Below are positions 44,253 to 44,608 of a stretch of DNA of 64,000 nt, in pieces. This stretch comes from Escherichia coli (GTDB lineage Bacteria; Pseudomonadota; Gammaproteobacteria; Enterobacterales; Enterobacteriaceae): the NCBI RefSeq assembly GCF_003334405.1, contig NZ_QOWM01000008.1; one strand, 5' to 3'. Position numbers and translations under genes: made by a program. Positions within the stretch are counted from its first letter, which is position 1; each line of letters opens with the position of its first letter. The notes below the pieces were generated by a model. That model searched no databases and had not been told where the DNA came from. It was given only the letters and a program-made list of their open reading frames with translations.

Positions 44253-44446
44253 GCACTCTCCTTGAGTTTTATGCAGGTGTTAATTAGCGGGCAATTGTAC
44301 CCTGGTTAAGCCTCGGGTGGCAGCATCAGGTCTTGTATGGAAAAGCATATCTTTGTAAAGCGGAGGTAATTGCTGGCCTTCAGGCATGGGCAAATCGCGG
44401 CAAGTGGCGACCGAGTTAATATTTGCGTAGCGAAAATATTTAAAAA

Positions 44447-44460
44447 TTGATTTAAATCAC
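44447..44460. promoter_or_regulatory. FNR-type box TTGATttaaATCAC upstream of ompW
   Basis: Near-consensus FNR palindrome about 150 bp upstream of ompW. Confidence 0.55.
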
Positions 44461-44608
44461 ATTAACCAGGATTCTCAATGCAACTTCTAAATTAATCCAG
44501 ATCAATAAAGAGTGAATTATCATATGTAATGTGATCTATGTAGGATCATTTGTTACTCCAATGTAGGTATATTCGTCACGTTTTTATAACCATAACGACG
44601 GAGCGGAT

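Follow-up and report, generated by a model that had tools for sequence, protein, structure and literature searches.

An FNR-like box in the yciC-ompW spacer of Escherichia coli is the published -126.5 FNR site of ompW and very probably dampens expression activated from a second, proximal site

What does an FNR-like box do between the divergently transcribed genes yciC and ompW? The box in question, TTGATTTAAATCAC, occupies positions 44447-44460 (+ strand) of a 64-kb stretch of E. coli DNA, hereafter called the window, and was described in the first-pass annotation as lying one mismatch from the FNR consensus and as consistent with anaerobic control of ompW. The description of the sequence is correct, and so is that of its setting: the interval 44253-44608 is exactly the 356-bp spacer that extends from the yciC start codon to the ompW ATG at 44609. 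Here the E. coli chromosome segment runs tonB-yciA-yciB-yciC / ompW / yciE-yciF-yciG, and 5418 of 5426 complete E. coli genomes carry the spacer at 95-100% identity, with matching RefSeq gene names. The spacer is partly non-intergenic, in that RefSeq annotates a 29-codon pseudogene remnant inside it, at 44280-44369. Thirteen of the 5434 spacer matches in the E. coli genome collection fall on plasmid-classed records and some genomes hold up to three copies; these plasmid-borne or multiple copies could be F-prime-like plasmids, duplications or assembly artefacts.

Compared with TTGAT-N4-ATCAA, TTGATTTAAATCAC agrees at nine of the ten specified positions and has the correct 4-bp spacing, its sole mismatch being the final base, C for A. 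An FNR motif scan of the whole window recovered this box together with a second one-mismatch box, TTAATCCAGATCAA at 44492-44505, which the earlier annotation had not reported; the centres of the two (44453.5 and 44498.5) are 45 bp apart. One reading of such boxes is that they are chance near-consensus matches in AT-rich DNA, devoid of function. When the spacer was shuffled 20,000 times with its dinucleotide composition preserved, matches with at most one mismatch appeared 0.034 times on average, at least one of them in 3.3% of the shuffles (P = 0.033) and at least two with P = 0.0006; two were observed. A single box in the spacer is only modestly unlikely; the pair is clearly non-random. Chance would also suit the perfect consensus present in the purU coding region, which has no known role, and the fact that the right half of the box is not kept across genera. 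Nevertheless, the improbability of the pair and published ChIP-chip, ChIP-seq, EMSA and mutagenesis results refute this reading, which is almost certainly wrong.

Across the whole 64-kb window, eight matches with at most one mismatch were found against 2.95 expected, a number reached in 2 of 100 shuffles, and published FNR-controlled promoter regions account for five of the eight: two at narK, one at narG and two at ompW. ATGATAAATATCAA (9812-9825) and the perfect TTGATTTACATCAA (9850-9863) precede narK (ORF from 9917) and are 38 bp apart, and a perfect TTGATCGTTATCAA stands at 11725-11738, about 100 bp upstream of narG (ATG 11830); FNR sites at -41.5 are on record for the narK and narG operons (Myers et al. 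2013). The perfect consensus in purU, TTGATAAGCATCAA at 19933-19946, falls within the coding sequence (19570..20412, - strand). It may be a silent intragenic consensus; the main text of Myers et al. (2013) makes no mention of purU. The remaining one-mismatch boxes are GTGATCCAAATCAA at 30133-30146, in the adhE-ychE intergenic region (adhE end 29909, - strand; ychE start 30386), and ATGATTTTTATCAA at 654-667, probably within the 3' part of kdsA as suggested by collinearity with strain CREC8. The comparison with CREC8 (L042) also revealed a difference in the tyrT/RtT repeat region (about 18300-19600): genes upstream of it are offset by 178 bp (narX is at 7788..9584 in the window and at 7610..9406 in CREC8), whereas purU and the genes downstream coincide, which implies that the strains differ by a single RtT repeat unit of 178 bp.

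The box at 44447-44460 is an already published element, the E. coli ompW FNR site at -126.5, and has been in the literature since 2006. ChIP-chip gave an FNR peak at yciC/ompW, with AAAAATTGATTTAAATCACATTAA as the site predicted beneath it (Grainger et al., NAR 35:269, 2006/7), the FNR ChIP-seq peak at ompW was attributed to a site at -126.5 in the category 'direct repression' (Myers et al. 2013), and both 14-mers are named verbatim as FNR sites -126.5 and -81.5 (Xiao et al. 2016). According to PMC13058942, the -126.5 site of ompW is present in RegulonDB. The ompW transcription start site (TSS) was mapped by 5' RLM-RACE to a G located 29 bp upstream of the ATG (Xiao et al. 2016), and taking the corresponding base of the window as +1, all published ompW elements (two FNR sites, CRP and NarL) fall into place without discrepancy (see the table). 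With respect to E. coli K-12, the 14-mer, its flanks, its distances to the TSS and the ATG and the neighbouring sites are identical, so that no difference was found. The location of the box, in the non-coding yciC-ompW spacer upstream of a mapped promoter, is that of an FNR operator.

Table. Features of the yciC-ompW region, in window coordinates.
Feature	Position	Strand	Sequence	Basis
yciC	43509..44252	-		ORF
C-terminal remnant of YkgJ-family CxxCxxCC cysteine-cluster gene, 29 codons	44280-44369	-	LPPLYKDMLFHTRPDAATRGLTRVQLPAN, then stop	RefSeq annotation
Orthologue of marsox box MS-C	44422..44451	+	TTTGCGTAGCGAAAATATTTAAAAATTGAT	Window sequence aligned to Salmonella MS-C
FNR site -126.5, upstream, repressing	44447..44460	.	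TTGATTTAAATCAC	Same as published site
FNR site -81.5, activating	44492..44505	.	TTAATCCAGATCAA	Motif match; EMSA and mutation in Xiao et al. 2016
Approximate orthologue of ArcA site ABS-1	44506..44525	+		Placed by position only; directly downstream of the -81.5 box
CRP site -42.5	44530..44545	.	TGTGATCTATGTAGGA	Sequence at these coordinates; cAMP-dependent EMSA and deletion phenotype in Xiao et al. 2016
NarL site -18.5, nitrate repression	44554..44569	.	TACTCCAATGTAGGTA	Sequence; NarL-P EMSA and TAC->CAT mutant in Xiao et al. 2016
Probable -10 hexamer, -12..-7	44568..44573	+	TATATT	Position relative to the mapped TSS
ompW TSS	44580	+	G	44609-29 = 44580; window base G; matches RACE in Xiao et al. 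2016
ompW, regulated gene, 212 aa	44609..45247	+		ORF; RefSeq 'outer membrane protein OmpW' at collinear position

The probable -10 hexamer is strongly kept across genera as (G)TATATTC. A generic sigma-70 promoter scan did not call the ompW promoter, because it has no good -35, and returned only a weak minus-strand match at 44323..44294; the absence of a good -35 fits an activator-dependent promoter. Several further features of the promoter were observed. The inverted repeat GTGATC-N7-GATCAT at 44531-44549, centred at about -40, exceeds the published 16-bp CRP site, and other genera carry in its place the more symmetrical GTGATC-N7-GATCAC. Three GATC (Dam) sites occur in the promoter, one of them inside the -81.5 FNR box, and are kept in nearly all aligned loci. 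Within the 29-nt leader, the 5'-UTR block ATAACCATAAC at 44586-44596 (AAAACCATAAC in other genera) is almost invariant across genera. The sRNAs RybB and MicA target ompW mRNA, and this block could be part of the pairing or ribosome-loading region.

Which role does the -126.5 site play? Anaerobic control of ompW through this box, as the first-pass annotation proposed, is upheld by published ChIP-chip, ChIP-seq, EMSA and reporter data, in which the box represses or dampens and does not activate. In EMSA with FNR-D154A, the native promoter gave two shifted complexes, either single mutant gave one and the double mutant none (Xiao et al. 2016). Anaerobic activity of a PompW-lacZ fusion falls about 3-fold, to the delta-fnr level, upon mutation of the -81.5 site, the change TCAA->CTGG abolishing anaerobic activation; it rises about 2-fold in the m-126.5 mutant and about 3-fold when the 14 bp of the -126.5 site are deleted, and the -81.5 mutation is epistatic to this deletion (Xiao et al. 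2016). After a shift from aerobic to anaerobic conditions, ompW expression reaches its maximum at 10 min and falls thereafter; the fall does not occur without the -126.5 site, nor the rise without the -81.5 site (Xiao et al. 2016). Anaerobic activation runs through this second box, at -81.5. According to the same study, H-NS represses ompW aerobically and deletion of hns leaves anaerobic expression unaffected, anaerobic repression by ArcA requires FNR, CRP-cAMP acts as an activator at -42.5 and NarL-P as a repressor at -18.5 (Xiao et al. 2016). The net sign of FNR differs between reports, ompW being FNR-repressed in one (Myers et al. 2013) versus about 3-fold net activation in the other (Xiao et al. 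2016). With a centre at -126.5 and a published effect of repression, the box falls outside the Class I and Class II arrangements of FNR-activated promoters (-41.5, or -61.5 plus helical repeats). The two boxes 45 bp apart, with opposite roles taken from the literature, have instead the tandem-FNR architecture of the yfiD type. We are confident that the E. coli ompW promoter has two FNR operators, that the box at 44447-44460 is the upstream one and that it damps the expression activated from the proximal one.

The mutant phenotypes have also to be weighed against the other elements present at this position. The Salmonella SoxS/MarA 'marsox' box MS-C is TTTGCATAGCGTGAATATGTCAAAATTGAT (Gil 2009, as quoted), and its E. 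coli orthologue ends in the five bases, TTGAT, that form the left half of the -126.5 FNR box, so that the latter, judged from the alignment, appears to sit on a multi-use stretch. Derepression in the -126.5 mutants might then have nothing to do with FNR and result from damage to the overlapping marsox orthologue (44422-44451) or to an AT-rich H-NS nucleation tract. The only part strongly conserved across genera, made up of the left half of the box plus the preceding A-tract (AAAAATTGAT), coincides with the MS-C 3' end, ompW is repressed aerobically by H-NS, and derepression is stronger in the 14-bp deletion than in the point mutant. However, derepression was measured anaerobically, a condition in which delta-hns is without effect, and FNR binding in EMSA is lost in the mutant. 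In addition, derepression is lost when the -81.5 site is also mutated and is therefore FNR-dependent. As for the marsox box, which is defined by GCAY and an A/T-rich 3' part, the E. coli orthologue has GCGT and not GCAT. A non-FNR origin of the derepression is hence quite improbable. Some of the derepression seen in the 14-bp deletion could still be FNR-independent, this deletion shortening the promoter and removing parts of an AT-rich tract and of the marsox orthologue. A counterpart of an ArcA site may also be near: Salmonella ABS-1 (-70..-55) was defined by EMSA and by a 5-nt substitution of GTTAA (Morales 2012), and the AATGTTAAATTA block kept in other genera has AGAGTGAATTA as its E. coli counterpart. 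RegulonDB, as quoted in the 2026 phylogenetic-footprinting study, places the E. coli ArcA site over the ompW core promoter.

The single departure of the box from consensus raises the question of whether FNR is the only protein that uses it. The base at which the box differs from the FNR consensus (ATCAC, complement GTGAT) is the base that distinguishes CRP from FNR half-sites. The right half and the next base form TCACA, a perfect CRP half-site, within ...AATTGATTTAAATCACATT..., and against TGTGA-N6-TCACA the sequence ATTGA-TTTAAA-TCACA scores 8/10, its left half being FNR-type. The box might in this way be a dual or hybrid CRP/FNR operator, bound by CRP-cAMP besides or instead of FNR under some conditions and linking the promoter to carbon status. 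CRP can repress from upstream positions, -122.5 or -117.5 (PMC3445967), and the fragment used in the published CRP EMSA spanned only -120 to -3, so that the box was excluded from it (Xiao et al. 2016). On the other hand, the left half is pure FNR-type TTGAT, FNR occupancy is direct by ChIP and EMSA, the galactose effect is gone on deleting the TGTGA at -42.5 alone (Xiao et al. 2016) and the CRP-like right half is kept in no other genus. These points make a CRP role of the box unlikely, and we retain FNR as its ligand.

Another possibility is that the box serves the divergent gene, yciC, besides or instead of ompW. It lies in the common yciC-ompW spacer, and the ChIP-chip paper labels its target 'yciC/ompW'. 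But 201 bp, including the pseudogene remnant, separate the yciC ATG from the box centre upstream of it, the sole promoter-like match on the - strand would set the box near -160, the ChIP-seq peak was assigned to ompW only (Myers et al. 2013) and the reporter effects on ompW are direct. We consider control of yciC very unlikely, and reject an element devoted to yciC only.

The remnant between the box and yciC is what is left of a gene that is intact elsewhere. In Salmonella arizonae and diarizonae, Atlantibacter, Phytobacter and two 'Enterobacter' spp., a YkgJ-family gene of 133-136 aa is divergent from ompW (comparison loci L011, L027, L015, L034, L035, L003, L005 and L017). By BLAST, one end of a 767-bp Salmonella spacer corresponds to E. 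coli 44253-44370 and the other to 44418-44608. Between them, 47 bp in E. coli (44371-44417) take the place of about 460 bp, which leaves E. coli shorter by about 411-413 bp. The right-hand junction of the deletion, where homology with Salmonella restarts, is 29 bp upstream of the -126.5 box. In E. coli ET729 (L048), ISEc68, of the IS5 family, is inserted at the equivalent of about 44416, between the YkgJ remnant and the ompW promoter; this insertion is about 31 bp upstream of the -126.5 box and at or beside the ancient deletion junction.

How does a promoter with two FNR operators work? According to the literature, [4Fe-4S]-FNR dimers first bind the conserved -81.5 site as oxygen falls, and FNR bound there raises transcription from the weak, activator-dependent promoter, counteracting H-NS; CRP at -42.5 activates separately in the absence of glucose. 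Once more active FNR has built up, a second dimer binds the 9/10 box at -126.5 and transcription is lowered, an effect that requires the -81.5 site and accompanies the FNR-dependent repression by ArcA. The outcome is a transient microaerobic peak of expression, with NarL at -18.5 adding repression by nitrate. The mechanism of -126.5 repression that we prefer, by analogy with tandem CRP, guaB and yfiD precedents, is a non-productive contact, in which FNR at -126.5 most likely traps or mispositions the RNA polymerase alpha-CTD, or else a higher-order assembly of FNR with ArcA (or H-NS) that includes the -81.5 dimer.

These precedents resemble ompW to different degrees. At yfiD, FNR bound at -93.5 suppresses the activation exerted from the FNR site at -40.5 (1998; Marshall et al. 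2001, as cited), and both promoters share tandem FNR operators, a proximal one that activates and a distal one that dampens, with a maximum at intermediate oxygen; the yfiD sites are 53 bp apart with a Class II proximal site, whereas those of ompW, -81.5 and -126.5, are 45 bp apart and both unconventional. Unlike yfiD, ompW has CRP in the Class II position, at -42.5. In a synthetic tandem CRP promoter, CC(-122.5)CC(-61.5), CRP at -122.5 lowers activity through an AR1-alphaCTD contact that is needed for the effect and apparently restrains polymerase (Lee & Busby 2012, PMC3445967), and at guaB CRP at -117.5 lowers promoter activity (PMC3445967). The tandem CRP promoter is like ompW in that a dimer of the CRP/FNR family about 120 bp upstream dampens proximal activation by the same family, and differs from it in that the protein is CRP and not FNR and the proximal site is at -61.5. 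Like ompW, the cydAB and focA-pflB promoters carry multiple FNR sites that act in opposite directions, are also regulated by ArcA (and, at cyd, by H-NS) and reach their maxima under microaerobic conditions; their site positions and promoter numbers are others, and at cydAB FNR is only a repressor. Finally, the narK and narG boxes at 9850-9863 and 11725-11738 belong to the same operator family and bind the same protein as the ompW box, but they are perfect 10/10 sites at -41.5 that activate directly, whereas the ompW box is a 9/10 site at -126.5 that represses.

Is the repressing site shared by related bacteria? Orthologous loci were sought in a species-representative genome collection with a degenerate DNA pattern for the OmpW peptide GEFFMRAG, which returned 40 stretches. 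About a dozen were chance matches in unrelated phyla, seven were Buttiauxella loci without yciC upstream and three more enterobacterial loci had no usable start or too little upstream sequence; all these were dropped. The 18 syntenic loci kept, with ompW preceded by yciC, include 17 non-E. coli ones and cover Salmonella arizonae and diarizonae, Atlantibacter, Phytobacter, Cedecea, Buttiauxella, Dryocola, Huaxiibacter, Lelliottia, several 'Enterobacter' spp., an Enterobacteriaceae MAG and a divergent Escherichia (E69); the closest outgroups, S. enterica subsp. enterica, Citrobacter, Klebsiella, E. albertii and E. fergusonii, are missing from this sample. The seven Buttiauxella loci set aside (L012, L020, L025, L028, L031, L032 and L040) carry an ompW-like gene of the GEFFMRAG...GMGGF type, and B. 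agrestis L018 holds the syntenic copy; the former may represent a second ompW copy in another context, without a conserved -81.5 box at the usual distance.

In the aligned loci, a strongly conserved core extends from about -95 to the ATG and comprises the -81.5 box, the AATGTTAAATTA block, TGTGATC...GATCAC, TATATTC and the 5'-UTR block AAAACCATAAC. Each of the 17 non-E. coli loci has the -81.5 box, whose distance from the ATG hardly varies, with a mean of 1.53 mismatches (1.12 in the left half and 0.41 in the right half, whose ATCA is kept in 17/17), and the left half of the CRP site, TGTGATC, is kept in nearly all aligned loci. At the -126.5 box, the mean over the same 17 loci is 3.65 mismatches, of which 0.59 fall in the left half and 3.06 in the right half. 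In terms of conservation in related species, then, the expectation attached to the box holds for its left half and fails for its right half. A box with at most one mismatch (9/10) occurs at this position outside Escherichia in only one of the 17 loci, the MAG UBA7338, where TTGATCTGCATCAG likewise stands 45 bp from the -81.5 box; in Salmonella the sequence is TTGATTTGAATTAC or TTGATCTGAATTCC. Within the species, 5423 of 5426 E. coli genomes contain the 40-mer around the -126.5 box, and the box is unchanged in 7/7 diverse E. coli/Escherichia sequences aligned, including E69, in which the surrounding 240 bp differ at about 14% of positions. Such invariance within Escherichia is compatible with constraint and is, taken alone, not significant. 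These alignments give good support for a complete -126.5 box in Escherichia alone, the other genera appearing to keep just the left half. In this respect, Xiao et al. (2016) stressed only the -81.5 and CRP sites as conserved, and a 2026 phylogenetic-footprinting study displays FNR-like motif peaks at both ompW sites. Non-conservation across genera, which the first-pass annotation had taken as grounds for refutation, is no valid refuter here, because the -126.5 site is experimentally real in E. coli.

What do these results mean for the regulation of ompW? Current knowledge is unchanged: the ompW promoter is one of those annotated in most detail in E. coli. Of its two FNR sites, the one that dominates function and is conserved in evolution is the box 45 bp downstream of the one that was annotated first. 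A rejection based on conservation would have lost an experimentally real site, which calls for caution in pipelines that combine motifs with conservation. The conservation of the left half only, where the site overlaps a SoxS/MarA box, beside a deletion that destroyed a gene, is a small and testable example of operator turnover. As a tentative and rather doubtful possibility, the full -126.5 operator, and hence the self-damping by FNR and the microaerobic peak, may be an addition of the Escherichia lineage to a conserved FNR(-81.5)/CRP(-42.5) core, arisen by changes in the right half next to an ancestral TTGAT half-site that also served as the 3' end of a SoxS/MarA box; the operator of UBA7338 would then possibly have arisen independently. 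If this were true, anaerobic induction of ompW without damping would be expected in Salmonella and in most other genera.
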